Below, piece after piece: positions 2,576 to 41,265 of a stretch of DNA of 64,000 nucleotides. Below the pieces are notes generated by a model that worked only from the letters and a program-made list of their open reading frames with translations, was not told the DNA's origin and searched no databases. The stretch is from Balamuthia mandrillaris (Eukaryota): assembly GCA_031835245.2 (NCBI GenBank), contig JAVKOQ020000003.1, positions 248,001 to 312,000 of the forward strand, read 5' to 3'. Every line of letters starts with the position of its first letter. Position 1 is the stretch's first letter. The translations under genes were made by a program, and so were the position numbers.

Positions 2576-5500
2576 TTATTCTTCCACTTCGGATAATTCA
2601 TAGTGAGAATGCTCCGCGGATCGAGGAACGTGCTCGCTTTCTTCCTCTTCTGGCCCGTTGGTGGGCAGTTGGGTGTAAGAGGGCTCCACTTTGCGACAGG
2701 CACAGAAAGAGGGGAGAGGTAGGATGTACACAAGGCAGGAAATAAACGGAAGGAGAAGCCACAAGTACCACAATGACACGGAAACATTAGCTGCATCCGC
2801 TCGAATCCAAATGAGGAAGACCAGTCCGCATAAGGTTGCCGTGAGAGTAACTGTTGCATGGACAATTGTCCAGATTCGCCCAGAAGTGGCAGCACGTTGC
2901 CTGACTAGCACCCAAAGAGCAAGGAATTGTGCAACGCCTTCCACAATGACGCAGATAGAAGCAAAAGCAACAAAGACGGATGGCTGTATAGGGGCATCAG
3001 GTCGTCCCAGTACAGAAATGAAGAAGGTGACGCCTAACGTGAGCAACACGGAGGTTGAGCGTAGCCAAGCAGTGTGCTGGCGGTTCTCAGCGTCTTCATA
3101 CTTGATTGGAGGGTAGTGCCAGGTAAACAGCAGGAAGCCCAGCCCTCCCAACAAAAGAAAGAGAAAAGAGAAGAAGATAAGGGCGATGCTCCAAGAAGAT
3201 TCAGCTGGCGTCTGCCCAATGACGAAGGGGCTGAGGAAAATGGTCGCTGCAAGAATAGCGCGCTGGGTAAGTCGCCAGCCAAACTTGTCGCGGAGGTGCC
3301 TTGCAAGAAGCACTTGCAGAGCCAGAAGGTTGAGAAATAGCGCCACCAAGAACATGAAGAGGGCGAGGATAGTGAGATGAGCTGCTCCATAAGGCTCGCA
3401 GTAGGAGAGTAGTGAGGATACACTCCACTGAGCGCCTTTCAGAAGGGATACCAAGGCTGATGACGCAGTTATGTCGTCCGAAGCAAAGGCTTTCTGCAAG
3501 GAAGCAGTGATGACAATGCAACCCCATCCAAGTGGCACTGGAGAGCTAGCATACATCCACCAAGCAAAATATCCAGTAGCTGCAATAACGAAGAAAAATA
3601 CAATGACAAACGTGCTGTGGGTATTATCGGTCGGAGCAGAGGGCCAATGGGTGGTGTTGGAGGATATCAGCAGCTTGAATCCGTGTTGTTGATGGTAGTG
3701 GGAGGGGTCTTGGCATAAGAGAGAATGCTTGCCATCTGAGACTACGCGCAACCGCTCGTAATGCTCACATTTGTGTTCATTGTCTATTGAACAAGGCAAA
3801 CGGTCTTGCAACCAAGAAACATCGGTAATGCCCATTCTCACCCAAGCTTCATCACGGCAGTGTATACGTGGGTCGAGGCAGGTAGACTGATCAAAGCTGA
3901 GCGGACCGTGCGGTGTGATAGCACTATGTTGTGGATCGATAGACACTTGGGCATGTAGCAGCCGAAGAGAGGTGCGGGTTTGGGAGAGTAGCATTGCCTC
4001 CGAAGTGTTATGCACCGCCAAGATAGGTGGAGGGGATATGGAGGTGGTGTTCGATAGGTAAACACTGCTGAAGCCATCGTGGAGGTGTACCGTCAGAGGT
4101 AGACTAGTGTTGGCAAGCCATTCTAGCCAAGCTTGATTGGCTAGAATGGGCTTCTTGCTATGGTTAAAGGAAGTAGAAGAAATACCTCGCAAGGAAGTAG
4201 GGCCAAACACAACAGTACGATTGTAGGTTGGTAGGCTGCTGTTGTTGTGCGGCAATACCAGAGGGAAGAAGTGGATAGCGGAGGGATACTCAGCAGCATC
4301 AACGAAAGAAATGTAGGGAAGTCGCATCATACGAGACGATGCGATGCTGACTACCGAGCCATTACAGGAAGGGCCGTGGAAGCGCAGGGCTGTGGAGTTG
4401 TATTCCTGCCAGTGTCCAAAGTTCCACGAGGAGAAGGAGGAGGAGAAATTACTGGAACTTGAAGTAGCACCACCACAAGCAATCTGCACGGAGCTATCCT
4501 TATTACCACCAACAAAGAGGTTGGTGGAGTTGACTAAGCAAGAGCCTCCATGACTGAGCAGAACTTCCAGGTCATCCTCTACGGTCATGAGATTGCCATG
4601 AAGAAGAGTATGGGACCATGGTTCAGAACCAGAGTCCTTGATCTCAGCTGTAACGTTGGGGAACAGGAGCACCAGCCGGTAGAGTGCCCGTTGTTTGCCA
4701 AGGCCTGTTACCTCGGTCTGTGGAGTGCTAACGTTCAACTCGCCGCTGTGCCGAGAGTAGAAAGTACAGTTTGCCTGAACAGCTTGAGGATCTATGCCAA
4801 GCTGCTGGAGCTGCTCTCCAAGCCACCAAGACACCGGCTCCGTTTGAGCAGAGGCGGTAGAATTGACCAATGAGCCTACTTGACGCAGACAGCCGTTAAA
4901 ATATTGGATGTCGCTAAAGGTATAGTTGAGGAGGGTGTGGCCTCCAAGCCCCACTGCAACCACGCTGACATTAGCCTCTACCACACTGGGAGACACGATA
5001 GTCGTTGTATTGATGGCCAAGCTGTTGTTTAGCATGCGCTCCAAACGAAGGAAGGAAGGTGGGGTGGCAGGAGTGCTGACACGAAGGTCGGCATCAGCTG
5101 GAGTGCCTTTGACAGTGATATTGATTGGCTGTTGGGTGCTGAGGGAAAGGTGATCAATGGCAGAGGCCTGCACAAGCAAACCACCCAAAGTCACTCTTCC
5201 CATCTCTGGCAATTCCATTTTTTCTACCAGCATATTGTAGAGAATGGAATTGTCTGGACCATCCACATTTACAGCAAGAATAGCACCAGTGCCACGCAAA
5301 CTCCATACGTTAACATAGGCGGCGTGATCGAGAGGAGTGGGAAGGTTAACTTCCACCGTCCAGTTACGAGCAGGCTGCAGTGGAGGCTCCGATCGGCCTT
5401 GTCCATCTATTACTACCACTGCCTCTGGCGCAATGCCCACAATCTTGTAGGTGGTATAGGAGGCTGGTTCATACTTGTCCACTTGGCCAGGCACCGTAAC

Positions 5501-8500
5501 GTTGATGATGACTACTTGCTCTCTTACCAGAGAGAACAGGGTAGTTGTTGGTGTGTGCTTCCCCTGAGAGAAAAAGCCAGGGGCCGCAGCTAGAGATACC
5601 ACCCCATAGTCATTACTGGCTTGCTGTAGCTGTGATCGCCTCCGTACAAATGGCAAATCTTGCACCTTCAGTTGCTCTAACGTAAGTACAGATGAGGCAT
5701 AAAGCGGGTCAAGGGGTCCAATGATGCTGCCCTGAATGCTTGGTTGGGGTAATTGACTGTCAGTGTACCATACAGTCACATCATCAGAGGCTCGATCGTC
5801 TCCTAGTCGTGCTACCACAGCACGGCAGGGCATGACCAGCGCCAGACTGTCGTTACCAACTCCAAGATCAAAGAAAGCATGAGCATCCACCCCCCTGGCC
5901 AAGCTAGAAACATTCTGCCAGGTGACCACATCACCACCAGGGCCAAGGTTTACGTTCACTAAAGCAGAGTGAACTTGGCGGCCAACAAAGGTATCATCAG
6001 CCCATCCCGTCTCAATGGTGAGATTCATGAAGCCGGAGTAGACAAGCGGACAGGCTCGGCAGGGTTCATCTCCAGGATCAGCAGGGAAACCGACAGCTTG
6101 CATAAGGGTACACATCCAAGAAGACTGGTTGTAGGAGAGGGGAGCTATGCTTCCGTTCTTCAATTGAGAGGCTAGGCAGGACTGATCCAGGTAGTAGTGC
6201 TGCGGAGGGGCCTGTGGTCCCATGCCCGAGTTGAGGATCACCTTCACTGGCGTGGTAGTCACCTTGGATTGGCCGGGCTGAGGTTGGGCAAGGGCAATTG
6301 GGGCTACAATGTCTCGTAGGGGATGAGTGCTGCTCAGCGCAGATTGGACTTGACCAAGTGCCAGCTGGTTGATTGTTCCCATCAGTAGGATGGGGCTATT
6401 GCTGGACACGACGCGCACATTATTGATTGGCAGGGTGATGTTTTCAGAAGCGGTAAGGTTGGAGGGTAGGGTAAAGTTGAACAAATATTCCGTGCCGAGG
6501 GTACCACGGATGACGTTGAGCTCGGTGCCGTTTTGTCCAAATTGGATAGTGACACGCTCTATTTCATCGAAAAGAAGGTGGAAGTACTGTTTTTCGTTGA
6601 TGGTGTCGAACGCCAGCAAGGCGTTTTCTTGAATGTCGAAGCGCAGTGGGCGATTTTCAGAAGCGGCACGGATATGGATGGTGTCGTTCTGGCCACGGTT
6701 AGAACTGCCGTAGATCCACATAGTGCACTCCAGGGAGGAGATCTTGTTATTCTGTCCGATTTCTACCTCATGGTTGCTGCCATTTTGGAGGAAGATGCGG
6801 ACGTCAGACTTGCCATCGCACCCCGTGATCTGTTGGTAAATGCTGCCACCAGGCGCGCCAATAGAGTAGACGTGAATGGAGTCCTCTCGTACAGGCGCCA
6901 CGAGTGAAAAAGAGGAATGTGTATCAGCAGCACCGATGATGTGGTAGTTCCTGTTTTCCACGCTGGTGTGGCGGATCGTGTGCACGTCGTTAGGACTACC
7001 GTTCCACATGACGAGGGAATAAGGTGAGGCCGTTGCTTTCATGTGCAGCTGTTGCTGCGTGATAAGTGTGAAGTTGGCAGTGTCAATGCCTCCTCCGCCA
7101 ATAAGCTGGGTGTTGCCCTGGATGGCCGTCACCGAGGGGACTACGAAGAGGTCGTCACCAGTGCCAGCCAAAGCTCGTAGGGTGGTGCCAGGTGGGTTCT
7201 CTTGGATCAAATAAGTGGTGGGTTGCTCGCGGTTGCCAGCCACCCTCACCCACTGGTAAGAGGGAGGAAGGTAGAGCTGTAGTTGCTGCGTGTCCGTTGT
7301 GGCCTGCACCAAGTGAGTGGAAATGGTGTAGTGTGCAGCCTCCACGGAGATAGCCAGCGTGTCGCTCTCTCCTGTAACATTGATGGGTCGGCGGTCGTAG
7401 AGTTTCAACGCAGAGTCCAGTGTGACGTTGTTGTTGGCCAAAGATTCCAGAAGGGAAGGAGCTGGCACTCCCGATAAGGCATAGGTAACGCCCGCTGCAG
7501 GGCTGGTTAAGTGCAAAAAGCCACAACGCGTGATGCTCACCCCAGGAACAGACTCTGGAGCGACCAAAGTGGGAGAGACCTTGATGGTGGTGGAATCACG
7601 GAATTCGGAGACTATCAACCTCAACCTGGCGTTGTCATAGGGTGGCAGGTTTACTTGTTGGTGTACCACGTTGCCCACTACCCAGGTGAAAGGAGCAGTG
7701 CCAGGATTGCCCTTGTAAGTAATGGCAGAGGCGGTCAGCTTGCCTCTCGACATATGTGCAAAGCCCGAGTTGAAGCTCACGCCACTTGGTGCATAGTCCA
7801 CACTTAGTCCACCGGCAGGCGTCTCGAACAGATAAAACAGAACACCATCTTGTTCAGCAAGGGAGAGAGGAGCTATGGCTCTTCCTTTTTGATGTCGGCG
7901 TGAGCTTATGTACGTTTCTTCTGCCATCGATGAGGAGGATGCTGGTAGCATAAGCGTTGCTGGGGCGTGGGACCGGAAGCCCACCAGGTCCAAATTGACC
8001 TTGGCGTAGGGATCAGAGATGGCAGGGTAGGTAGCCGGCTGGTTTATGATGGGCCATTCGTGGCCCCAGCTCAGCTTGACAATGTCCCAACAGATCTCAT
8101 CAAAGATAAGCTCAATGCAAGCGCGAATGGCCAGGCCAAAGCGAGCACCTAGCGTAACACGTTTGTCTAGGGCTCCCCACCAGCCGTTCAATTTGACGAG
8201 GTAAGCAATCTCGTTGAAGGTGACCCATCCATTGCCGTCGATATCCACGAAGCGTACCTGGCCCGTTAGAGTGAGCGTCAGGAAGGCTTGACCCTCAAAG
8301 ATGAAGATGCCAATGGACACACTGCCAGTGACGGAGACACGAGCTTGAAGGGGCCAACGTTCTGAACCATCGTTATTGCGGGCAGGCAGGGCCAGGGCGT
8401 GAACCACCATGGCAGGGGAACCTGATTTGAAGGCATCCGCCAGGCCACTGTACATGAGGGCCACTTCACCGAAACTGACACGTAAGCTAGCGGATACGGC

Positions 8501-11500
8501 CAGGCCCAGCTCCACTTCTGGCCAAGGCCAGATTGGGATGGACCAGGATAATCCCATTCCAAACTCCAGGTCTGGCAAGGTTACACCAGCCAAAGGAAAG
8601 TCGATGCCCATCATTGCTGATACCAGGTTCTTGGCCACGTTGTCGAACATGTAGAGACGAACACCAAACTTTCCACTAGTGGTAATGCTCGTATAAAAGC
8701 TAGATACCTCTTTTTTGGCAGCTGCGTCCTTGCCGTGGAACTGTAAGCCTGGAGGAGGCAGCGGTCCCGTAAACTTGGGTTCCACTGTCTCTTTCGTGAA
8801 GTCAAGATAAAAGTCTTGTACAGCCTGTACCACGTTGCACTGGTCCTTGGAGATAACCTTGGTTAGGTCCACTATGAGTTCCAACTTACGATAGACGTCC
8901 ACAAAGGTCTCCAGCATCTCTAGCACGCCTTGGTAGTGACACTCGTCGCCGACCTGGCAGAAGAAGAAGAGCACTTGAATTAAGTTGATGTCATTGCCAA
9001 ACACATGAGACAGGCCGGGAATAGGTCGCAAGAGGATACCGTCAGGACCCAAGACTGGATCCAGCGGGTCCAGCAGCTTGCCGATGGTCTGCTCCGTAGT
9101 CACTCTAACTACATTGATCAGCAGACGGCCAACACAAAAATGGATGTCGGAAATGTAAAACTGAGGGGGGGTCAGGTTGTCGTGTAGCTTCCATTTCCAA
9201 CTCAGACCGAGAGAGGCCTGCCAGTGAGGAAGGGCGTCCAGGGCATCTGGTGTGTGGGCTATCCGTTCCGCCAGCTCTCCGCCCAACCCTATCTCTGCTG
9301 CACCGAACAGCCTTACGTCCATCCAAAAATCGGGATTGAACTGGCTATCGACGGCAAAGCGTCCCTCCAGCTTTGTAGCGTTGCTGCCGGTGGTTACCAG
9401 GCGAAGATCCAGGCCGACATAGCCAATATCGCCAGAAAGGCGACAACCATCCGCCACGCTCATGCTCAACGCTCCCGAGAAAACAGGGTCCTCTGGGAAT
9501 CGCAAGCGTACGCCGTGGGTGTAGTTGAAAACCAATTCCACCGTAAAATTCCAACTTAGTATCAATTCCGCTTCGCACAGGAGTTCCAGCGATGCAAAGC
9601 CATGATCCCCCAGGCCAAAGTCCATGTTTTGGATCGGCTTGCGGACCGTGCTACCAAACGGAAGCAGCCACTTGTATTCGTCTGCATGCACATCAGGTAC
9701 TGCAGGGCAGGGTCCTCGCAACACTCCACTTAGTTCCTGGCAAAGGACTTTGGTGAAAGCCTCCAGCACAAGGCTCTCAATGTAGGTTGGGTCAAAACTG
9801 AAATCGTACTTGGTCAACATGTCGTTGGTCATGTTCGTGATAGCCACCACAAAGTTTTTCGTCAATTCAGGTCCAACGAGGTCTCCGATGGCAGCAGTGA
9901 TGAGATCCTCCACGAGCTTGTCCACCAAGGGTAATCCCAGCTTGACCAAGATACCCCCTCGCCCAAGGAGGCGGGAGAGGAAGGCCTGTATTTCGCTCTC
10001 CCAATCCTGCATGAATATCAGCTCTGAAAAGTAATCGAACAACGTATTCTGAAGCAGGGCTCGTTCCAACATCTCTAAGAAGCCTCCTTCGCAGCCCTGT
10101 TGGATGATATCAGGAAATTGCCGACCAGTAATGAAGTCGTAGATGGAAGAGATATTGATCAATAGTCCGCATTTGTCGTGGGACCCGCTGCCCAGGGCGA
10201 TGAAAGCATCCAGGCCGGCTGTACCTGTCAGGCTTAGTGCAAGTGACCCAGAGGGGGACAGCCTGGCCGTCAAATTTGCTGGATAGCCCAGCCAGCCGTG
10301 TGCTTCCGAGAATGTGACAGAAAGAGGGCCGAATGATGCTTTGATATTGCCATCCATAGCGAACCCCATAGCCAGCGACATGCGGGTTGCTTCGTGATCA
10401 AGAGCCAGAGAGACTCCTCCATCATCTTCAAATCGGGCCAGCAGCCGCAATCGCATGTCAAACCCAGTCTGCAGGTTCATGTCGCTCTCAGCTCCGATGC
10501 CAAAAGGAAAACCAGGGCCAAACAGGGCGGACGTATCAAACCGCAGTCGATCCTCAAAGCTACGGTTGAAGAGAGAGACCTGAAGATCCACGGCCAAAGT
10601 GTGAGCATCCACAAGGGCATTAGCGCAGACGTCCTGTCTATAAACGTCCTTCATCACGGCACAGAGCAGAGCCAGGGTGAAGGGTTCTTTTTTGTTGCAT
10701 ACACTGGACTGAACATCCTTCAGCAGGGAGAGCAAACCGGAATCCAGCAGTCCAGCGAACGTGTGTTGGCTCATTGGAAGGAACTGACGGGCTAGCTCGT
10801 TGGTGGTAAGGATGTCAGACAAGTCTTGGGCAAGAGTCAGCCAGCCACAAACAGAGTTGTTCGTATTCAAAAGGCTTTGGAAGGCAGTGATGCTTTGTTG
10901 AGCACCACTGAAGGCCACCTGCCAACTGGCCAATTGTTGAGTAAAATCGGTCAGGTCGGAGAGGGCGGCTAACTTCCAAGTTCCTATGTTGTGCAGCAGT
11001 ACATCGGGAGGCGGAATGTCCATCTTAACAAAGTCCAGAAGCAGATTCTGCAGGCTAGTTGAGCTATTGACGTTGAAGGCTGCGTTGAAATAGTCAAAGA
11101 ACTTGCTACGGGGAGCGATGAGGTGGCCCATGAGCTGGTAGGGAGCTGAGCCCTTGATAGCCACCTGCAGTTGGCTGCGAGCGGAAATCCTACTGCTGTT
11201 CATGGCGAGCACGGCATAGCGTCCCGTGGCTTGCGGTAGGGAGGCTTCCAGGTCGAGGCTCAAACCCATAGAAGTGTTCTTTGAGAGCAGAAGAGCACGT
11301 GCGGGCACATTGGTAGCGTTCTGGAGAGCGGGAACATGGCCCAACGGGTTCATGATGCTTAGCGACAATGGCACCAGCCACCGTACTTCCTCTTGTCCTT
11401 CTTGTGTGGCTGGCAAAGAAACATACCTAAGATCAAAGCGAACTTGAGGAATGCTTTGCAGCAAGGGATCTCCCGGCATTTCACTGACGGTAAACATGGG

Positions 11501-14500
11501 CCGCAATGTTTCGTTAATCTGTGGCAAAACTTCCTGCAAGAGAGCATCTCGCAAGAGCTTTCCAGGAGAGAGGACGATAGAGTGGGTGACGGTCATTGTG
11601 ATGGGCTGTGCAGAAGGAGAGCGCAACTGGGCGCCAATCATCAAAGAGAAGGTATTGCCGGGCGTTGACGGCACCATCGTAGCGTTTATGGTGAAGGGGC
11701 CAGTGCTACTAAAGTTGGTCATGACGGTGATGTTGCCACGGCCGCCCAATGGAGGTACATCTAGCACGGTAACCATGGTGGCTGAAAGGGAAGCCTTAAC
11801 CTCTCCGCCCAGTCGCCCGCCGCTAACGTCCATAGAAATCACATTATCCATGGCATTAAAACGGGAGGTGATCGCAAAGTCAGTCTCGTGTCGGTGGTCA
11901 GCTGCAATACCCTGTTGAATGGCCACAAATTGTTGTGGGTAGACTTGGCGGAGGGCAGGCGGTACCAGCTGTGGTACATCGTCTCGTTGAATGGTAGTAT
12001 AGACAGGGGGACGATAGGCAAAGATGTTGTCGTAGCCGCTGAATACTCCATGTAACAACCAAGATAAGTCCTCCCAGGTGGCGAATGCCGGTACTGTGCC
12101 TGCGGTCCAACGTCCAATAAAGCTAACATTCCCAACGGGTTCAGTTGTAACCTCTAAGTCCCACACCGCTCCGGCAACGGATGGCACCAGAGCAACGGTA
12201 CCACAGGCAGCACCACCCCGATCGGCCACCACAGCAGCCAGAAAAGGATCCAAATGGCACCCTTGAAGGGCCACGTTGAGGCTGTTAGACAGTTGGTCAA
12301 GGCTCTGTGTAAGCAGAGAGTCGGCCTTGCATATGGTCATGGTCCCTTTGTTGATGGTCACGTTCATAGAGAGGGGACCCTGAGGTCCGGACGGGCAGAA
12401 TGGTTGGGACACCACAAGCTGATGTCTCTCTGCAGCTGTGAGAGCGTGTAACCATGGCAACTTGGCCTTCAGCAAGTCCTCGAAGCCGTGCACCTTGCTC
12501 AGTGGTTCGGCCAATGGGGAGAGGGGGACGTTCAAAGCCGAACCAAAGGCCTGCGGTAGAGAACCAAGAATGCCCTCCTTAAGAACAGTAAGGGCAGAGA
12601 GGGAAGAAACCATGGAGCCGCCATCTGCTGCGTTCACACTGATTTGGGGTGGCAATTCTCTCTTAGTCAGGTCTGAGGCTTGGATTTGGACCTTCAACAT
12701 TCCTCCTAAATCAGTAGCCACGTCCATTGTCAGTGTGAGAGAAGAGGAAGAGGGCAAATTGAGCGTGAGGTCAGCGGAGGCTTGTGCCATAGTTCCAGAA
12801 AGCATATTGAAGGTGAAGGGTATGGTCCAGTCAACGTGTTTGGCCCCGCCGTGAACAGAGTACTCGGTAAGGTCCCCGCTGCCTGAAGGGGTGACGGTGA
12901 AGCGGAGGCGCGTGTAAATATTCATGGGGAGTGACAATCGTCGCGTGTCTGTCATAAATTTCCAGGTGGACCTCTCGGTGGCGAGGGTAGCCGTCACTTG
13001 CCTATGAACCAGGATATCCACTCTCAACGCAGAATTGAGGGGGGCAACGGAGGCGAACAGGATGAGGCTTGGGTCGCTGGCGGCCTCCGCCCGGATCAAA
13101 TCACACAGGCTATTGGCCAGTTTCCATCCACTCATTGGTTGAGATAAGGTGGAGAGGGCATTAGCGAGCACAGTGATCACCGCAGCAAAGCTGTTGTTCT
13201 GGCCTGCCATGATACCGAAGTTATAAGACAATGGATACAGCACGTCGCTAGCCCATCTTTGAACCTCTATGTTATGGGCAGCAGCATTAAGGCCTGCCAC
13301 GTAGCTGGAAGGCTGATAAGGCACGTCGATGGCAAGTTCTCCAGTCTCGGTAAGCCCAATAAGCGTTCCAGGAATGATGCCATGCAACGCAGAGGAGACA
13401 CAAGCTTGAATACGTGCAAGTCGTGTGGTATGGTCATAGACAATGTTCGCGCAGGTGAACATGGGGTTCCCAACAGCGGGCCATTGGGCTTGCATGGAAA
13501 CCACCGCCGAAAACACGAGTGGGGTGGAAAGGATGACCTTATCTCCAGAGATAGAGACAGAAGTCGTAAGGTATCCAGAGACTTGGGAGGCCTGTAATAC
13601 AGAGAGAGAGCTGTCTATAGCTGGCGCTTGGAAGCGAGGATCGATGGCGGGATAACGTTGTCTAACTTGGCGAGCCAGCTCTTGGATGGCTGAGTTAGCA
13701 TTTTGTACAGCTAGATCATCGCCGCCGACCGTTAATGAGCCTTTAATATTTGGAGTCTGGATGACTAGGCTCGTTGTGTTGCCGTCTCGGGAGGTGATGG
13801 GACTAAGACCACGCCTCTCTCCGAACCAGCGCAAGAAATCCTGAAGGGATGGTGCCTGGGTTTGTGAGTGATAGGTGGTAAGGAAAGGTTGGAGGCCGGT
13901 TGAGTCTGTGGGGAAGAGGTTCTTGACCGCCTGATTCACCACAGCGACGGGAGTTGTTAACAAGGAGCGGATCTGTTCAAAAAGCTTGCCGATGAAGGCC
14001 AGTTCTCCTGCGGGAAGAGAGTCTAGCGGGAGAACTGGGATAAGAATACCGGCATGGACGGATGAAAACAGGTTGTAGGGGAGAACGCTGTACATCTGAA
14101 CGTTTCCCTTAGAGCTTCCTTCTCTTTCTCCTCCTTTGGCCACTTGTGCTGATGTCTTTGCTGGAAGACGGCCTGGGGCTGGGGGAGGAGAGGAAGAGAC
14201 GGGTAGGTCGCCTCCAGCAATGATGCCAGAGGTAAGAACTGGGATGGTCCTTAACAAATTGGCCGTAGCTGTGTCATCAGAGAAAAGAGCTAAGGTTGGC
14301 CAACCGCTGACAGCATCGGCAGCGGCAGTGGTAGTCAGAGGAGCTATGGCAGTAAGATAGATGCCCAGAAAGACAGATGAGTTGTCACAGCGAAATAGGG
14401 CGTGGGTGTGTGCTCCCATTCCCCTGGCTGTTATGCGCTCCTCCGTAGCAAAGATATCGAGGGTAAGGTAGCTGGACAACGTGTCCGGGAGGAGGAACAA

Positions 14501-15600
14501 GGAAGAACAGAGCGACTGTTGGCTTGCTCCCTGCAATACTGAGGCTGTTACCAGCCGCTCCAGAGAGGTAGAGAGGGAAGTAGGGCATTCAGCAGGACCG
14601 TTACAAGAGGTCCTTGATTGCAACAAAGCGCCTTGTTGGGAGGGACCCTCCCACAAAAGGTCGCCACCCGTTATTCTGATGGAAGTAGAAGGCAGTGAGA
14701 CAGAATCCAAGAAAGCTCCGCGGATGGAAGAAGAGCGTAGAGAGGAAGGAGTGGCGGAGAATTGGGAGAGACGAAGATTTGGGCGAGCGGCAAGGGAAAG
14801 AGTGGCCATTGTGAGGTTCCGCAAAGACGGTTTCACACTAGGTGTGGGTCTATAGAGAAAGGCAGCAGGCATACCGTCCAGCAGGTCTCCATCCACGATG
14901 AGAAGGGAAGCGGCAGAGGGATTGCTGCTGCTGAGATCCGTTTGCAAATCACCTCTCCAAACGAGGGGAAAGCTCGACATTGCCGAAACTGGGAAACTCC
15001 CTCCTACCTTGCTGAGGGTCCCCAATACAATGCTCGAAAATGGAGTGGTAGTGCCAGAGCTTGCTGGAAGCGTTCCATTCACCGTCAAACGAAAGGTAAC
15101 ACTGATGTTCAAGCTTAGAACTTGCTGTTGAACATCCTCGACATGGACGGTAACCGTCCTTCTCAGCTTTCCACCGCTGCCAGACAAGGTGCCATCCGCC
15201 AGACGGTTTGGTTGCAAAGCGTCGTTTGCAATGTCCACCCAACCCGAGTCGTAGGAAAAGGACCGGCCGCTGTTGGAGACACAGTTACTTTGAACCCATG
15301 AAAAGTCGGCTAAAGCGGTTCCCGTGAAGCCGTCTATCCAAGGTACTCTTGCTGTTTGCACCGAAAACAAAAGAAAAAAAAACAAGAAAAGAGAAAGCCG
15401 GTGATAAGAAAAAGATCTAGTAGTGGTGTACGCAAAAATAGAACCAATCGAAGAGGACAAGAAACGACACCTGTGAGGGAGTTAAGGCCTTGGCAGAGAG
15501 GAGGTAATGGGGCAGCCGTAACGCAGCATGCGCAGGCCGCCAACAACAACAATGCCGAAAGTAACGGCCGCGGTTGCAGGGATAAGGGAGCGCCTCTCAT
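2576..15600 (-). CDS. Giant (~4300 aa) surface protein: signal peptide, very large ectodomain with RTX-like repeats and an EF-hand-like loop, C-terminal multi-pass membrane domain
   Basis: A 12.8-kb uninterrupted ORF (2576-15460). A signal-peptide exon MRGAPLSLQPRPLLSALLLLAACACCVTAA starts at 15600 and joins by a probable phase-1 intron ~15353-15470. It has DIDGNGWVTFNE, motifs GTGDDLF, GGGGIDT and GVGNDSL, and about 8-9 hydrophobic segments in the last ~330 aa. Confidence 0.85.
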
Positions 15601-29764: not shown

Positions 29765-30033
29765 TGTTAAAAAGGGCAAATAACATGAACAAACAGGGCC
29801 AAAACGTATTATTCAAAGAGGGAACAAAGGAACAAAGGGTGTCAAAAGAGAAAGGTGTGGTGTGAATGAAACAAAACTAACTAACTAAAAGAAAGAAAGA
29901 AGGAAGCAATGGAATAAATGGAAGAAGTCTAGTGATGTGGCAGTAGGCAATTGGTCCATGTCAGGGATGTTGACAGTAAGAAAAGAAAGGAAAGGGGGCA
30001 ACAGAGTTAATATGTTGAGAGTAATTCTCAACA
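29765..30033 (+). mobile_element. Solo copy of the ~269-bp LTR-like repeat
   Basis: TGTTAAAAAGG...ATTCTCAACA, homologous to 35899-36167, with GAGA on both sides (putative 4-bp TSD). Confidence 0.8.
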
Positions 30034-31594
30034 GAGAAAACAACAAGAAAGGAGAAGTTCAAGAAAGGAGAAGTTAGACATTGAGAAGTTTCCTCAGGTT
30101 AATAGGCAAAAAGGAGAGGTCAATATGAAAGAGAAAAAAAGCTAGTATGTTTAAAAAGAGCAAATCAACTCTGTTTCATAAAAACATTCCTATCACTTTT
30201 TTAAAACATAAAACACGTTCTAAACAAAAAAGGACACTCTTTTTGGAAATTATTTTTGATTTAATAATTGATATATATTTATTAATTATTTTTGAAAAAC
30301 ACTGAGTTGGGCCAAAATACCAGTTTTTATAACATTGCTTAGGATACAAATTGTAAAACCTTCAAAGATAATATGACTGGTGTAGTTCCCTTCAAAAAAA
30401 GCAGTTTCTCACTGGGATGTTGGCTAGAATCAAAAGTCCTAGTCTGTGTTGTACTAGTTAATAGGGTCACTGCACTTAAAAAAAAAATGTAGGTCACTGC
30501 TTTTCTCCTGGTAGAACACGTTAGCTATCAACAAGGCCTTGACCAGCCTTTCCCTACCCTTTCCTTCCTGGTAGCAAGGCCCTTGGAGACTCTATGGCAG
30601 GCCCTTTGCTCCTCAGGGCAGGTCCTTGTACTAGAGTGTGCTCATACTCTCTTACCACTGCTGAGCTCCTCCTGGTCATGGGCAGGGAAAATATAGTAAA
30701 TGCTTGAGATATGGGAGAGAATGTGGCAAGAGCAAGCAAACAAGAGAGAAAGAGAGAGAGAAAAAGAAAAAAGAGAAAGAAAAAATGAGAAAGAGAAACA
30801 AGGAAGAAAGAGAAAAGAACACAAACTATGAGAAGAATGAGGAGTGCTAGTACTACCATCAGCGTCATAGTCATGAAGCTCACTGATGAATGCCATCATA
30901 AAGAAATAAAGGATTGGCAGGTCACTACTGCTTCCATTGGTGTCCAGTTGGATTTTTGTCGACATAAGTAACAGAAAAAAGGGAGAAAGGAAAGAAAAGA
31001 AAGGAAAGAAGAAAACAAGAAACGTGCTTTAGTTGTCTGCTGCCTGCTGCAAACTTCAAGTTGGTGAGGTAATCTTTTTCTACAAGCTATCCTTTTACAC
31101 CCTATCAGCACTATATTGCTGATAGGGACTATTTGTGATTATTGTAAAAAACAATAAATATTTACTTTCCTATTCTAATATTTTATTGCAATAATTTTGT
31201 AAAATATCGGTTTTTCCTTGATTTCTTCCACCAAGCGAACAGGATCCACTGCCTCCCTCAAAAAATCAAAATAGCTATCTGCTTGCATGGTGTCCCTTTT
31301 GTCCATAGGTTCACTCACTTGCCCTGCTGTCTCTATGGTACCAGTTTCTAGGCATTCAAGTTCTTCCCAGTCGTCACTGCTTGAGAAGATCGACATCACC
31401 TACATATTCTTTCACTCTTGTCCTGCCAATGATCAAGAAAGACAAAAACTGCTTCGCAGAGTGCCATCAACCAAATCATCAATAAACACAATAATTTTTA
31501 TTGTCTACAAAAACTTATCAGCAATATATTGCTGATAGGCATGTCACAGTATTTTCAACTTTTTTGTAGACAGGATGAAAAAGGATATGTGGGC

Positions 31595-32130
31595 ACTTTT
31601 GTTTTTCTTCAATCTGCACACATGTGCACACCTCCAACAAATCATTTTCTCTTCCTATCCTTTTCTTTTTCTTCAATCTGCACACGCATGTGCACTTCCT
31701 TAAATCATTTTTTCTCCCCCATTTTTTCGTTTTTCTTCAATCTGCACATGCTTGCACACTTCCTATAAATCTTTTTTTACCTCATCACTTCAGTTTGTGC
31801 ACTTGTTATAAATTATTTTCTCTTCCCCATCTTCAATCTGCGCACATGTGTGCACTTCTAATAAATCATTTTCTCTTCCCCATCTTTTTGTTTTTCTTCA
31901 ATCTGTGCACGTGTGCGCACTTCTAACAAATCATTATTTCTCCATCTTTTTGTTTTTCTTCCATCTGCACATGCGTGCACACTTCCAACAAATCATTATC
32001 TCTTTCCCAGCTTTTTGTTATTCTTTGATTTGTGCACATGTGCGCACTTCCTCTAAGTGATTGTCTTTCCCCATCTTTTTGTTTTTCTTCTTTCTTCCAA
32101 CAAATCATTTTCTTTCAAGTGTGCACACTT
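31595..32130. repeat. Degenerate minisatellite, ~60-bp unit, ~8-9 copies
   Basis: Recurrent TTTTTCTTCAATC-TG(CG/CA/TG)n-CAC(T/C)TC-(C/T)AACAAATCATT. Confidence 0.85.
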
Positions 32131-32677
32131 TTAACAAACGTTGATAATACAAAGCCAACACCTCTTTGACAACCACAAGACTTCATGGGATGAAAGCCAG
32201 ACTAGTCGTTGGTTCTAATCTTTCTTTCAACAGCTCTATTGCCCTTTCCTCTTTTCTTTCACAGGTATCATGACTACTCATTCATGGCACTCAAGCGCCT
32301 GTGCTTACATTTTCCTTTCTCTCCTTTCCTCCTTTTCCTTTCTCTTGGTGTACTTTCAAGCAAAGACAGAGATTCCTTCCTGTTGTCTTTTTTAGAATAA
32401 GTCACACTTCACAAACACTTTAACTGCAAGTCAAGAATGAGAGAGTACTTAGAAAAGAAATGTGTTGATGGAAGCAAAAAAGAAGGATACATTTAATGCT
32501 GCTTCCTGCAATGCAAAAAAAGATTCAGAAGTAACATAGAGAACTGAAGGAAGAGTTTAAGGTTAGCAACTTGGTACTCATTCACTCCAAGATGATGTCA
32601 ATTGGTGAGTCTAAGAAACTTTGATATGGTTAAAAAGGAGGACATCATAAGATTATTAAAATCTGTTCACAAACAAA

Positions 32678-32787
32678 GTAAGAGTAGTAAGAGTACACTA
32701 TATATGTACAATGCTTACTTTTTATGTATTGATTGGTGTTGCACTCAGAGTAAATAAACTTCTTATTACTACTATTACTACTACTTA
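32678..32787 (+). mobile_element. 5'-truncated LINE 3' end with (TAC)n tail
   Basis: Matches the 3' UTR of the LINE at ~40510-40607 (GTAAGAGTACACTATATAT..CAATGCTTACTTTTTATGTA..AATAAA..TTATTACTACT). Confidence 0.8.
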
Positions 32788-33552: not shown

Positions 33553-33652
33553 AGTAGTAGTAGTAATAAGAAGTTTATTTGCTCTAGGAGCAACACCACA
33601 CTATATAAAAAGTAAGCATTGTACATACATAGTGTACTCTTACTGCTCTTAC
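33553..33652 (-). mobile_element. 5'-truncated LINE 3' end with (TAC)n tail
   Basis: Reverse complement of the same 3' UTR and tail. Confidence 0.8.
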
Positions 33653-34161
33653 TCCCTCATCCTCAATGCCTTCCCAATTGTTATGTCCCCTAAACAGTAA
33701 TCGTTGGTGGAAGCCTGCTTTGCAACCCATGCAAAAAGAGGCAAAGATCCCCGAATGTTTTGTCAAAGGGGACAAGTTAAATCAGTTTTTGGAGGAAGCG
33801 TTCAAGTTGGCAGTGGAAAAGTATGGGCACCTGAATACTACCACAAGTTTCCCCCTTCCCAAAGGGCTAACCAAAAGGAGCAGGATGACAGAGGTGCAGA
33901 GGATCAGCATAACTTGGTAGTAGATTTGCCCTGCTGAAAGGAAGGGACCAGTGTTGTGCCTGAGAGGAAGATTGATTTGGACTCAGTCAGTGTGGATGAC
34001 ACTAAGGTGTGAACCAACTGTTAAGTGGCACTGCTGTTTGATTGTATTAGCAGTGTTTCTCATGAGTGTAGTAAGCTCTTTGAGGCAGGTGTACTTTCAC
34101 TTGCAGTGATTGTATGATTCAGGGACCTGATTGAATCTCTCAACTAGGAGATTAATAATCT

Positions 34162-36167
34162 TGTTGAGAATTACTCTCAACATATTAGTTCTGTTGCCTC
34201 TTTCCTTTCCTTTCCTTTCTGTTGACATCTGCAACGTGGACCAATCACCTGCTGTCACATCGCTAGGCTTCTTCCTTTTATTTCGTTGCTTCCTTCTCTC
34301 TTTCTTTTAGTTAGTTAGTTTTGTTTAGTTCACACCACACCTTTCTCTCCTGACACTCTTTGTTCCCTTGTTCCCTCTTTGAATAATACGTTTTGGCCCT
34401 GTCCATTCGTGTTATTCATCCTTTCTAACATTTTCACTCCCTCTTTTGTTAGAGTGAAGCATAGAGGTTGTGGTCCAGCGAGTCCTCAACTAGTTCATTA
34501 ATAGCACGGCAGTACTCATAATAGCTGTCAACATCATCACACTGCAAATAAGAAAGAGTAGCAGAGGGACCAGGAGGGGAGCCAAAGTGGATAGCAATAG
34601 CAGGAGGGTCATCATCGTTATCATCATCATGCACATTGTTGGGAGGGTCGTCATTGTTGTAACCAGTAGTAAGGGCGAATAGGCCAGATGAGTTCTTGTT
34701 GGTCTTGTTGGGGCAAGAAGATGCAAGGTGACCTTGTTGCTTGCATTTATAGCATGTGTGTTGCTCAGCAGTAGACGTGGAAGAAGTTGGTTTAGAAGGA
34801 GGAGGTGAGGTAGTAAAAGGCAATGGAGGGGCGCGTGTGCAAGTTGGATGGCCTGCAAATTAGCTTCCATAGCTATCGCAGTAGTAACAGCTTCATTGAA
34901 GTCATTGGGCAGGTTGGTAGCAAAAGCAGATGCTAAACATAGTTGAAGGTCCTTATTAAGTGCATTACACAGTGTAGAGGCCAGAAAGTCCGGTGGTGGT
35001 GGCAAAATAATCTGATCACACATCTCCAAGATTTTCTTGCTGATAGAACAGACAGACTCCGTAGGGCCAGCTCATAGGCAACAGAGCTTTTTGTAGGTGA
35101 CAAAGTTTGAGCTTTGTGGAACAAAATGGTTAAAGAAGATTGCTTTAACCGAGGTCCATGGAGTTCTGGGGAGATCGAGGTGGGAGAGAGCCCAGGCTTT
35201 GGCAGAAGGATTGACAATGCTCGTGATATGGGCTTTGTACCAACATTCTGGCAGCTGGTCGTCCTGCAAATGGAACTCGAGGGCACAGATAAAGGTCAAT
35301 GGGTTGGAAATCTTCGGATTGTCCAGGTCAAACTTGGGAAGATCATGGAGGAAAGATCGGTTCTTGACAGAAGGGGCTGAAGAAGCAGATGAAGAAGCAG
35401 TGTTGCGAGGCAGTTGACGTGGGGCAAAGGCAGAGGCCAACACTAACAAGGAAGCTGAGAAAGAGGTGGACTTGGGCTTCATGGGTGTTGAAAAGATCAG
35501 GTCATCCTCCGCACAATCTTTTTGGAAAAGAGTCTGTTGCAATGGCGGATTAGATGTCACAGAGAAGGGAACAACAGAGGAAGTAGGGGCAGGAGGACAG
35601 GAAAAAAGAGGGAACTTCCTGTTCTCTAGGTCATCCATTGCTTGTGAAAGTCATTCGATTTTGTTGCCAAAGAAGACTGCTTTCTTCTGGTGCTCTTCTT
35701 TTTCTTCCGGGGTTGATGCCATGGCGGCTTTTTCAAGCTCCTCCGTGGCATGAATGTGGGTGTTCTCAAGGGCGGCTCAAAGGCGTTCCAAATGCTCCTT
35801 GAAGGTGGTTGGGGAAATCGTCTCAGATTTCTTGTTCTTGGCGTCCATCACATCTGAGGGGAAATCGCATGAATAATGGTTCTGGTTGTCAAAAAAAATG
35901 TTAAAAAGGACGAATAACATGAACGGACAGGGCCAAAACGTATTATTCAAAGAGAGAACAAGGGAACAAAGAGTGTCAGGAGAGAAAGGTGTGGTGTGAA
36001 CTAAACAAAACTAACTAACTAAAAGAAAGAAAGAAGAAAGCAATGGAATAAAAGGAAGAAGCCTAGCGATGTGACAGCAGGCGATTGGTCCACGTTGTAG
36101 ATGTTGACAGAAAGGAAAGGAAAGGAAAGGGGCAACAGAACTAATATGTTGAGAGTAATTCTCAACA
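34162..36167 (-). mobile_element. gag-only retroelement bounded by inverted ~269-bp LTR-like repeats, 4-bp TSD ATCT
   Basis: 34162-34430 is the reverse complement of 35899-36167. ATCT occurs at 34158-34161 and 36168-36171. The interior holds a disrupted gag. Confidence 0.85.
34449..35848 (-). pseudogene. Disrupted gag with CCHC zinc knuckle
   Basis: CYKCKQQGHLASSC (CX2CX4HX4C), capsid-like AKAWALSHL..PWTSVKAIFFNHF, in-frame TGA stops and frameshifts. Confidence 0.8.
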
Positions 36168-37041
36168 ATCTTATGGTGGAGGAAAAAGGAAGTGCAAAAG
36201 GTACCAAAGGCGGTCCTGCTCCGGGTGCCCATTATCAACAGTCATACATGGAGGTGGTTGGATCTGCTCCTCAGTGTGACCAGATTACTGTGAAAAGGAA
36301 TTTCCCTCCAATGGTAACTACATAAGCGCACTAAGCTTGGAATACTGAGGAAGAAATGGCAAAAGCTTAGTGCACTTATGTAGTTACCATTGAAGCACAC
36401 TAAGCTTGGAATACTGAGGAAGAAATGGCAAAAGAACCAAAGGACAACTCAAAACATTCCTGAAACAGAGTATGACTAATTAATATTCACTTTACTTCTC
36501 CCTGTATATGGTACTGTATATAACTTCAATCAATATTAGAGGAGGTATAAAACATAAAAAAGATAAACTTGTTCAGATGATGACCAAACAAGAATTTGAC
36601 ATCCTTTGTTTCATAAGAATGTAACTGTATAAATTTACCTTGAGCTGAAGGTCTTCCTTGGAAAAGACAAAGGGAACCATAGCATTTCCAGCTAAAGCAA
36701 GCTCATGACAAACTCCATGCTTGCAAGCAAACAATCCAGAAAATCTCAACCAGCACTGCTCAAAACCAATCCATCCATTCATTTGTCTGTCCTCTACATT
36801 CTTGGGATAAAGTCACTAATATATCCTAAATCACTCTAGTAGTCTCATAACTTGTAATAATCTACTAATGCACCTTGCTTACAAGTATGCTTCCTCTGGT
36901 TCTTCCTCTTCCTTTCCCTCTCCTTCCTTTCCTTTCTCATCTTCAGCATAATTTTTACCAACACACTGAGTGGTCTCTGAGGAGCACCAGGTACTGTGGA
37001 TGACCTCAAGGTCGCCTTGGCTATGATTGAGAAGAGAATAC

Positions 37042-39075
37042 TGTTGGCAACTGCCAACATAACCAACTCTTTCTTTGTTTCTTTCTTTGTTCCTTTCTTC
37101 TTTTCTGTCAACAATCTCACGTTAGCTATCATTGATCTTTTATGTCGACACATAGCCATTCTGAAGATCTTTCTCCTGCCTTGCCTGGAACTTTCCTGAG
37201 CCTAGAACTTAAGAACAAAGAAACCAAGAAGTCACTCCCCAACCCCGAGCCTCTTTCCTTCCTTGGTTGCCTTCTCAACTATAAATACTTTTCCCACAAC
37301 CAAGAAGAGGCAAACAAACAAACAAAGAAACAATACACTCACAAACACACTTGTTCTCTTCTTCTCATTAAATATGTTTGGCTCCCATCTTTCTCTTTGT
37401 TCCTGTCTTGGTTCTATGCTCAGGTTCTAACATTTTTTTTGACAAGTCAAACCATTTGATGATGGAAGCTTTGCAACAGACACAACAGCAACAGCTGCAA
37501 AGCATGGCAACAGGAAACACAAATCAACTGCCACTGCCTATTTTTACTGGTAGTTTGTTATCCATAGATTCTCAGCAAACAACCACACAACAAATCTTGG
37601 CACTTCTGCAGCAGCAACAACAGCAACTGCAGCAGCAACAAATACAACTGCAATCTCTCCTTCAACAACATTGTCCACCTTGATGGTGCTTCCTCAGTCA
37701 TTCCGAGTCCGACCAGCTTCTGTTTCTTCATCCCCATCTCCCTCTCACATGTTCATGCACAACATGTTCCATGGTGCTCCTTTTGGCATCAAGACAGTTC
37801 CCATGTGTATGCAGCATCTGATGACCGTCATTCTCAATAAACTACACAATTGTTCTGCCCACTACATCAGTGATTGTCTAGTGCATACCAAGTCATCTTC
37901 TTCTCTTGATGATCATATCCACTTTGTGCTAGTATTTCTGCTCTCAATGATGCATGCCTTCATCTTCAAACTGAGAAATGTCATTTTGGCTTTACATGCT
38001 TGTTGGATTCATTGTTTCCTTCACTGGCTTCACCCCTGATTGGGACAAATTGTCTGCGCTTTGCTCCTTTCCTACTCTTACTACTGGAAAGCAATTGCAA
38101 TCCTTCCTCGGTTTTGCCAACTTTCTACGGCCTTTTATCCCTTGTTTTGCATGCCTTACAGCTCCTCTTGACGCTCTTCGATATGTCCATGATCTCTGAC
38201 CCTTCTGAACTACTGATTGTCAAGCTTCTTTGGAATTGATGCCTCCCAGAATGGTGTTGGTGCTGTTCTCTACCAAGAGACCCCAGACTAGCAACATCGC
38301 TACATTGCCTTTGCTAATTATGAACTCAATGATGCCCAGTGCAACTATCCAGCTACAAAACATGAGCTCCTTGCCGTTGTCTTTGCTCTTCTGCAATTTT
38401 GGTGCTGGCTCTATGGTCACCACTTTACCCTTTTCACCGATCACAAGGCTCTCACTTATCTCTTCACTTCCAAGCACTCCAATTATATGCTTAACAACTG
38501 GGCCTACATCATCCTTGAGTCTTCGACATTGTCCATGATCCTGGAATCAAAATGATCCTTGAAGACTGCCTCTCTTGACTTTATCTGAAGAATTTTTGGG
38601 AAGAGATGGTTCGGCTGGTCTAACCAGGCTGATAATCCCTCAATCTGCAAAGACTCTGACTCCTAAGACCTCCACATCTTCGTCTTCCGCCTTGTTTGCA
38701 CCTGGGTCATCTTCCCTCTCATCTTTTTTTCAGATTGAGCTTGATCAGTTTCCTCCTTCTTCTCTGTCAAAAGATCTCTCCACCTTTATCAAGATGTTCC
38801 ATGATAAGACTGCCCCCTTGTTGGAACAATAACAAGAACTTCTTCAAAAGTTTCACTCTGAAACTCATGAAGGTGCCTCCCATATCTTCAGTCGAATTTG
38901 GAATGAAGGATACTTCTGGCCTTCTCTTCACTCTGACTGTCACTTTGTCATGCGCTCTTGTAATGCTTGCTGATGCTTCAATGTGGCTAAACATGGCTTT
39001 CATCCTTTGAAGACCATTGCTACTACTTATCCATTTGACCACATTGCTATCAACCTCTTCGGCTCTCTTCCTTGG
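37042..39075 (+). mobile_element. Decayed Gypsy-type LTR retrotransposon (5' repeat 37042-37432; RT-RNaseH-integrase order), truncated by a LINE
   Basis: RT: GAPFGIKTVP, KQLQSFLGFANFLRPFIP. RNase H: DASQNGVGAVLYQ, NYPATKHELLAVVFAL, FTLFTDHKAL. Integrase: HSETHEG...YFWPSL..C..C, PFDHIAINLFG. Confidence 0.88.
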
Positions 39076-40607
39076 AGGTGACTCCTTCCAATAATTGTCA
39101 ATAGTGCAGGGGTTGTCAAAGTTAACATCCTTGAACAAGCAGGTGGTGGAAGCCCATGCTCTGTGGCTGAGAGAAGGAAAGAATGATCAAAAGACCAGAG
39201 CAGATTTTGTGGAACTCAGGAAAAGGTTTTTTGAAGTTGTGAAGAGCCAACAAACAGGACTGGATGAAGTGGAAAAGACAAGAGAACATCAAGGAAATGC
39301 AGAAATGGATTGGCAACATGTGGAGAATAGTGGCAAAGCATAGAGCAGAGCCCAAAGCTGTTATTAAGCACTGTGGTAGCATAGCAGCCTTCAAGGAACA
39401 TTGGGCAAAGCTGGGAAGGAAGGATCCTTCCATCAGGAGCTCACATCTAGAGGAAGCAGGTCTAGAAGGACCATCTTGGTCTGGCAGCAACTGGCTTAAG
39501 GAGAGCTTTAATCATGCATGGAGGAAAAGATTGAAGGTGGGCAAAGCAGCTGGAGGGATAATATCAATGGGGAAATGATGAAGTATGGAGGTAAACATGT
39601 GCAAGATGCAACTTTTGCCACTGATCAAGGCCATTGAGAACCAAGGCGTGTTTTCCAAGGAGTGGAAACAGGGGGTAGTTATCCCCTTGCATAAGGCAAG
39701 AGATCCCCAGAACCCAGCAAACTATAGAGGAATTACTCTCCTATAAGCAGTAATTCGCCATGCTGAGAGGCAAGATGGGCACTTTGAGCTTCTGGAAGAG
39801 ATTAGCCAAGCAAGGAAAGAAGAAGGTGAGAAGAGAGAAGGTGAGAGAAGTGAAGAGATGAGTGACATTGAAAAGAAAGCCAAGAGGATGAGGACCTTAA
39901 CTCGAGTAGCCAAGGCAGAGTATGCAGTTGAAGGAGAAAGAGGAACAAGAGCATGGCTTTGGCATAACTTCTTGACAAATGGAAGATGTTTGGTTGGACA
40001 ACAACAGAGCTTAGTGATTACCAACCCAAGGAAAGAACGATTGATGAATGCTATTTGCTGTGGTGGACTGCTCATTGGAAAAAAGTGGGGAGCCATTCAA
40101 CAGTCTGAAGAGGACAGTATGTGCCCTGCATACAATGCTGAGGAAGAAACAGCAGAACACTTCCTATTAAGGTGTCCAGATCTTTGGGAAGATTGTTTCA
40201 AAATCTGGAATGTGGACAATGGTGATGAAGAACTAGTTAGGAAGCTAATTATAGAAGACTGTACAACAAAGCTCCTGTCTAATGGAAAGAAATGCAACAG
40301 AGCTCAAGAGAGAGAACAATGCAAGCAAAGTTGTAAACGAGTTTGGAGATTATGGACAGCAAGAGCAAGTTGGAAGCATGGACGTTCTTCTGTATTTTAT
40401 CAATCTTTGGAAGTAATGTAATAGGAAGGAAAAGAGAAGAAAAGGGAAAGAAAAGAATAAATGGATGATACAAAGTTAGTCTGAAAGCTCATGAGGACGA
40501 GAGAGTAAGAAAAGTAAGAGTACACTATATATATACAATGCTTACTTTTTATGTATAGGTTGGTGTTGCTCTCAGAGCAAATAAAATTCTTATTACTACT
40601 ATTACTA
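39076..40607 (+). mobile_element. Decayed non-LTR (LINE) element: RT N-terminal fragment, C-terminal zinc finger, (TAC)n tail
   Basis: EWKQGVVIPLHKARDPQNPANYRGITLL, CPAYNAEEETAEHFLLRCP, and AATAAA followed by TATTACTACTATTACTA. The 5' boundary is approximate. Confidence 0.85.
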
Positions 40608-41265
40608 GTAAGCTATTTGACATTGTTGAAGTGTGCAAACATAGGAGAATGGTTGCTCCTTACTTGAAGGAGTATGAGTGGCTGTTCCAGAAAGGTGTGA
40701 CTATAGAAGGGGTGACCCAGGGTTCTTTGTTCAAGAGTGCTTCAAGGAAAACTTCAATCAGATTGGTCAAGGGATGAACTAAGACTAGAACAAAGAGAAA
40801 CTGTCCAAAGTAGTGGGTATTATTCAAAAAAGTCCTGTATGTCTTCATCTTCTTTACAGCTGGCTATTCCCTCAACTTGGTATTGTCTATATTATTCATG
40901 TGGAAGAAAGCTTTATACAGCTCCAAACCTAGGCATCAACTATGGCCATGATTAGATACCTATTTAACTGTTGGTTCCTTAGATGATACTAAATATTTAT
41001 TATATATTGTGTCAGTAACAGAATGCCAAGAGCTAGCCTATTCAAGGACAGTAAAAGCCAATTGAAAGTCTTTCTATTCATTCACCTATCCATCCTTTAC
41101 AGTCTTAGGATAGAGCACCATAGTTACCTCATCAAGGAAATAAAGATAATGACAACAACACATTGTATGAGCATCTTTTCTTCTTTGTCATCTGCATTGG
41201 TTCTTTAGTGCTGTGGCAGAAGAAGAGAAGAGGAAAATTAAGCTGTGGAAAAGTAAGAGTGAGCT

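Follow-up and report, generated by a model that had tools for sequence, protein, structure and literature searches.

A gag-only Ty3/gypsy-type copy with one inverted LTR in Balamuthia mandrillaris: a likely rare copying slip

Results

Organisation of the locus

The window analysed, a 64,000-nucleotide stretch of Balamuthia mandrillaris DNA numbered from its first letter, contains a unit spanning 34162 to 36167 in which two 269-bp long terminal repeats (LTRs) face each other around a broken gag gene. The component features, together with a further LTR of the same family lying some way to the left, are as follows.

29765..30033, minus strand: solo LTR belonging to this family (86-89%), flanked by a GAGA duplication of its own, from repeat and flank comparison
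34158..34161, no strand: left copy of the target-site duplication (TSD) ATCT, from flank comparison and empty-site contigs
34162..34430, plus strand: 3' LTR, 269 bp, in inverted orientation (sense strand of the family on the plus strand), from repeat comparison
34162..34182 and also 36147-36167, no strand: 21-bp hairpin with an 8-bp stem at the LTR start, also present in the solo LTR
34431..34433, minus strand: three extra A's (read on the gag strand) between the polypurine tract and the flipped LTR, the complement of the T tract behind the 5' LTR
34434..34447, minus strand: polypurine tract (PPT) directly after the gag stop, joined straight to the LTR start in contigs from run X9
34449..35848, minus strand: gag of Ty3/gypsy type as judged from its relatives, broken by three TGA codons and one frameshift near 34827, without pol
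34707..34757, minus strand: CCHC zinc knuckle (zf-CCHC, PF00098)
35891..35898, minus strand: T8 polypyrimidine tract where a TGG tRNA primer-binding site would be expected, with the LTR/T joint also found in runs X1 and X9
35899..36167, minus strand: 5' LTR, 269 bp, in the normal orientation of the family, with the corresponding joint (34434-35894) present in contigs
36168..36171, no strand: right copy of the duplication ATCT, from flank comparison and empty-site contigs

Inverted arms were detected at 34155-34434 and 35895-36174 with 94% complementarity, and direct comparison of the LTR pair proper (34162-34430 versus 35899-36167) gave a gapless alignment with 255/269 positions identical and TGTT...AACA ends, thereby bearing out an original prediction, made from the letters of this DNA, of two opposed repeats of ~269 bp bounded in this way. 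All 14 differences between the LTRs are transitions, seven of them at CpG, and the T/A state is split 6 to 8 between the two copies, a pattern that fits LTRs which were identical when inserted. When the solo LTR is taken as reference, 11 differences are private to the flipped LTR and two to the 5' LTR.

A match between 4-bp flanks would be expected by chance in about 1 in 230 cases. Contigs from four public sequencing runs (X1, X3, X5 and X9, from four studies) were aligned to positions 33650-35898, a span that contains one LTR, and the unoccupied site, consisting of the left flank, a single ATCT and the right flank, was recovered from two of the four (nine of the contigs listed for X1, one for X9). 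These empty-site contigs establish that the ATCT duplication is real and that the unit represents one insertion into a host repeat; they also argue against the coincidence that would have undermined the predicted duplication at the outer ends. The insertion target (33650-34157 and 36172 onward) is itself highly repeated, with many variants and a very high summed contig depth, a figure not taken as copy number.

The same data bear on the proposal that the inverted arrangement is an artefact of assembly at a repeat-rich locus. The inverted inner junction is bridged by none of the 32 contig pieces listed out of 3062, and the flanks are repeats of very high depth, both of which speak for such an artefact. 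Against this, the arms differ at 14 sites in a transition-only, biological pattern, the joint coincides with the last position of the PPT and shows 1 nt of homology, and the two flanks are adjacent in the empty-site contigs, which together make an artefact very improbable.

The outer 21 bp had likewise been predicted to form a hairpin, and the 8-bp stem found there had no counterpart of comparable strength in any of 20000 shuffled LTR starts. The presence of the hairpin in the solo LTR marks it as a family trait. A metagenome scan with the 21-nt hairpin returned one match (L001), the surroundings of which were by eye unlike an LTR, and which was taken as chance.

The gag gene and its relatives

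The internal gag with a CCHC knuckle anticipated from the letters was confirmed (PF00098, E 1.2e-5), albeit with a broken reading frame. Its stop is directly followed by the PPT, so that the element holds no pol. All six protein matches of the read-through gag were named hypothetical proteins of Balamuthia mandrillaris, the best full-length match (P0002) being an intact protein of 465 aa, 85% identical and ending in the same last residues as the gag; a second 465-aa member is present in its cluster. Single-sequence fold prediction of P0002 was poor (pLDDT 48.8), and the Retrotrans_gag profile matched the intact relative only at E 0.19. Gag residues 160-390 were grouped by Atlas with Retrotrans_gag, Ty3_capsid and CCHC clusters. 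Among 13 gag relatives, hand-picked from 150 listed relatives for their capsid-region matches with long ones favoured, six carried an rve integrase and five a chromodomain, while a tyrosine recombinase was found in none of them, nor in the element itself. Judged from the capsid and CCHC clusters and from the integrase-bearing relatives, the gag is of Ty3/gypsy type.

A search for a long gag-pol fusion, a weak test in which 7989 candidates were scored, gave none. A candidate relative of a helper element is P0020, a gag-protease protein of 713 aa that carries the name of this species and is 32% identical to the gag. Viral contigs yielded 13 pattern matches, with no relative of the element among them.

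Orientation of the LTRs in other copies

Evidence on the arrangement elsewhere in the family came from contigs that leave the aligned span at its informative ends. Among the 24 loose ends listed of 319, two X9 contigs aligned at the PPT continue, at the place taken by the LTR end in the window, into the reverse complement of the LTR's 17 initial nt, and in one X9 contig aligned at the LTR start (34162) the LTR is preceded by the PPT; the loop letters in these contigs confirm that the orientation is direct and that the other arm of the hairpin has not been mistaken for it. A direct junction of PPT to LTR start is thus present, among the rows listed, in one of the four runs, X9, which comes from another strain (word share 0.09). 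In 13, 11 and 5 of the contigs listed from X1, X3 and X5, respectively, diverse DNA follows the LTR end at 34430 (agreement 0.44-0.47). An inverted family would keep that LTR end facing inward, and the diverse host DNA found there consequently fits 3' or solo LTRs. The solo LTR at 29765-30033, complete with its own TSD, points the same way: a solo LTR is explained by recombination between direct LTRs, not between inverted ones.

In other copies of the family the LTRs are therefore direct, and the reading as an inverted-LTR family is mostly not supported, given the direct copies in X9, the inner ends that abut host DNA in X1, X3 and X5, and the solo LTR with its duplication; direct repeats in other copies are what the original prediction had itself named as grounds for giving it up. 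Two points of that prediction stand: a gag-bearing retroelement with inverted LTRs was inserted here in the manner of an integrase, and it is neither DIRS nor Ginger. Inverted architecture as a property of the family is not supported. A narrower version would have the inverted form recur or propagate as a sub-lineage with LTRs resembling terminal inverted repeats (TIRs), either through a copying route of its own or by being moved whole by an integrase. The precise ends and the true TSD would suit such a form, but the direct junctions, exposed inner ends and solo LTR in the family, the decay of the gag, and the want of any internal copy of the termini comparable to the internal complementary region (ICR) found in DIRS elements (longest shared word 9 nt) speak against it, and it is considered unlikely.

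The inner junctions

The joint between the LTR and the T tract (34434-35894) was represented, among the 15 joints listed of 26, by two contigs from X1 and one from X9. A second joint, 34434-35832, in which the 5' LTR is joined ~60 bp further in, was seen in one contig each from X1 and X3 and is another, internally deleted copy of the family.

A tract of the same kind occurs in a second family about 1 kb to the right of the unit:

37143..39080, plus strand: decayed Ty3/gypsy element of another family, with remnants of reverse transcriptase, RNase H and an integrase zinc finger; the left boundary is a guess

Pfam matches to this neighbour comprised RT_RNaseH (2.9e-20), Integrase_H2C2 (4.5e-7) and RVT_1 (4.5e-5), and the same leader of LTR end, T8 and GACAA is found at 37429-37445, which suggests, on sequence grounds, that T-tract priming may be common to the gypsy families of this amoeba. 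A search with its RNase H gave one pol match, unnamed. For the Skipper elements of dictyostelids, passages of PMC5006619 describe a polypyrimidine tract that replaces the primer site, with priming left unexplained. The recurrence of the 5' LTR/T8 joint in X1 and X9, the T8-GACAA leader of the neighbour and the Skipper precedent together identify the 5' LTR as the normal one and the 3' LTR as flipped.

The other inner junction differs between X9 and the window. In X9 the PPT is followed by the LTR start, while in the window it is followed by AAA and then the reversed LTR; the extra AAA is missing from the direct junction. A purine tract had been predicted directly before the 3' repeat, and it is present as quoted, except that its last three A's have no place in the X9 junction. 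A reversed LTR preceded by A's has the look of the complement of the joint between the 5' LTR and the T tract. Self-priming of the T tract was also considered and rejected, the longest complement inside the element being just 7 nt.

Discussion

A possible origin of the flipped LTR

The account somewhat favoured here is that the unit is a decayed gag-only Ty3/gypsy copy, the 3' LTR of which was flipped by one slip of reverse transcription before insertion by a borrowed integrase with a 4-bp duplication. In the course of events that we infer, an A-rich primer would sit on the T8 tract and serve as template for a short T tail, plus-strand strong-stop DNA would be made up of the LTR and this tail, and the full-length plus strand, after the second jump, would halt at the end of the PPT. 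The terminal A of the halted strand could then pair with the T tail of the displaced plus-strand strong-stop DNA, and mutual extension would yield, with no further event, a product in the order LTR, T8, gag, PPT, AAA and reversed LTR, each end of which would be precisely the start of an LTR. With CA at both termini, this product should be acceptable to an integrase, presumably that of a helper element; the integrase of Ty1, according to PMC2939329, inserts foreign DNA ending in TG..CA with a TSD. The flipped copy would thereafter be a dead end, since the direct R repeat on which the first strand jump depends would be missing from its RNA.

Evidence for the slip comes from the three extra A's, which match the T tract when complemented. 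They may alternatively be a PPT variant of the subfamily present in this strain, which would remove the main clue to a route through reverse transcription. Furthermore, private differences are skewed 11 to 2 toward the flipped LTR, which could mean that this LTR derives from another copy and would count against the slip.

That skew is also what might be expected of a different donor copy if an element with direct LTRs had integrated normally and its 3' LTR had later been replaced in place by an inverted one, through template switching or gene conversion at TGTT/AACA microhomologies. Replacement of this kind would retain the TSD and contiguous flanks, and could exploit the fact that the LTR ends are imperfect inverted repeats, with PPT-A|TGTT complementary to AACA|T. 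It would, however, require two precise switches, and the three extra A's present would not be expected from a switch within the 5-nt homology; it is accordingly regarded as doubtful, though worth serious consideration. Taken together, the readings in which the copy is a one-off are judged highly probable.

Priming by fold-back of the terminal hairpin, as envisaged in the original prediction, is disfavoured: resolution of a closed hairpin should flip its loop, and the 5-nt loop has at both ends the same orientation as in the solo LTR.

Comparison with known systems

The features expected of Ty3/gypsy elements are present in the form of a Ty3-type capsid gag with CCHC, TG..CA LTRs, a 4-bp TSD and a PPT before the 3' LTR. 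Direct LTRs are lacking in this copy and are found in the family (contigs joining PPT to LTR start, in X9 only among the rows listed).

Of the systems described in passages of the cited sources, the Skipper-type Ty3/gypsy chromoviruses of dictyostelids and Protostelium (PMC5006619) resemble the present element in their CCHC gag, a polypyrimidine tract after the left LTR, an amoebozoan host and a chromodomain, the last found in several of its gag relatives (5/13). They differ in that the present element is without pol and has an inverted 3' LTR, whereas Skipper LTRs are direct, and in that the Skipper tracts bear a characteristic C according to the text of PMC5006619, whereas here a pure T8 is followed by G. 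The TR-GAG and other gag-only non-autonomous LTR retrotransposons of plants, as portrayed in parts of PMC13570524, share the order LTR-gag-PPT-LTR and the lack of pol, but the element described here resides in a protist, shows no protease remnant, lacks a tRNA primer site and has one flipped LTR.

Inverted termini invite comparison with two further groups. DIRS-1, in the relevant passages of PMC7192593, has inverted terminal repeats flanking a gag-like gene; by contrast, the LTRs here are alike over their whole length and accompany a true 4-bp TSD and a PPT, and no internal complementary region was found (longest word shared between terminus and interior, 9 nt). For Ginger1 and Ginger2/Tdd, sections of PMC2836005 describe 4-bp TSDs and TIRs that have TGT ends and a length of 40-270 bp, an outline that the present unit matches in all three respects, its inverted termini being ~270 bp long. 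Its interior, however, is gag only, with no integrase-like DDE transposase between the repeats, its target is not CCGG or CCGT, and there is no sign of cut-and-paste. That the unit is a non-autonomous member of either group is extremely improbable, since in addition to the missing recombinase, transposase and ICR it possesses a PPT, a T8 tract and a Ty3/gypsy gag, and its family shows direct junctions. Literature searched by titles and the openings of abstracts, with few subscription journals covered, returned no inverted-LTR gypsy copy, only work on DIRS and unrelated subjects. Seven listed papers name Balamuthia mandrillaris together with a genome and a retrotransposon, the latter word occurring one to three times in each.

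Significance

The flipped-LTR copy is likely a rare copying slip rather than a new kind of element, and a single event of this kind is a curiosity, though it offers one useful clue on priming. The priming of polypyrimidine-tract elements is open according to passages of PMC5006619, and two features point to an A-rich primer: the AAA at this junction and the pure T8 tract found in two of this amoeba's families. The copy also illustrates that inverted repeats of ~270 bp, accompanied by a clean TSD, can come to bound an LTR element, which is the arrangement from which Ginger1 is proposed to have started: the authors of PMC2836005 suggest, in the section concerned, that the Ginger1 TIRs were possibly derived from two LTRs in opposite orientation.

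A bolder conjecture, and a long shot, is that T-tract-primed, Skipper-like gypsy elements repeatedly yield integrated inverted-LTR copies that form a lineage, with the A stub recording oligo(A) priming on T8. If true, a recurrent inverted lineage would be a living route from an LTR retrotransposon to a TIR-bounded element, as postulated for Ginger1.

Other features of the window

Several observations concern DNA outside the unit. To its right, a short inverted repeat at 36306-36395 has 33-nt arms 24 nt apart. A LINE-like remnant at 39100-40610 (plus strand) was recognised by eye from its translation, with a Pfam reverse transcriptase match absent on the piece scanned; its ~110-bp tail recurs at 32677-32783 and 33553-33665 as mutually inverted copies. 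To the left lie a tandem array of ~64-bp units with a palindromic TGCACA/TGTGCA core (31597-32102) and an inverted repeat of 24-nt arms 391 nt apart (31101-31124 with 31516-31539). Finally, an uninterrupted open reading frame of 4301 aa, with likely membrane helices at its end, occupies 2576-15481 on the minus strand in a region that is otherwise intron-rich.
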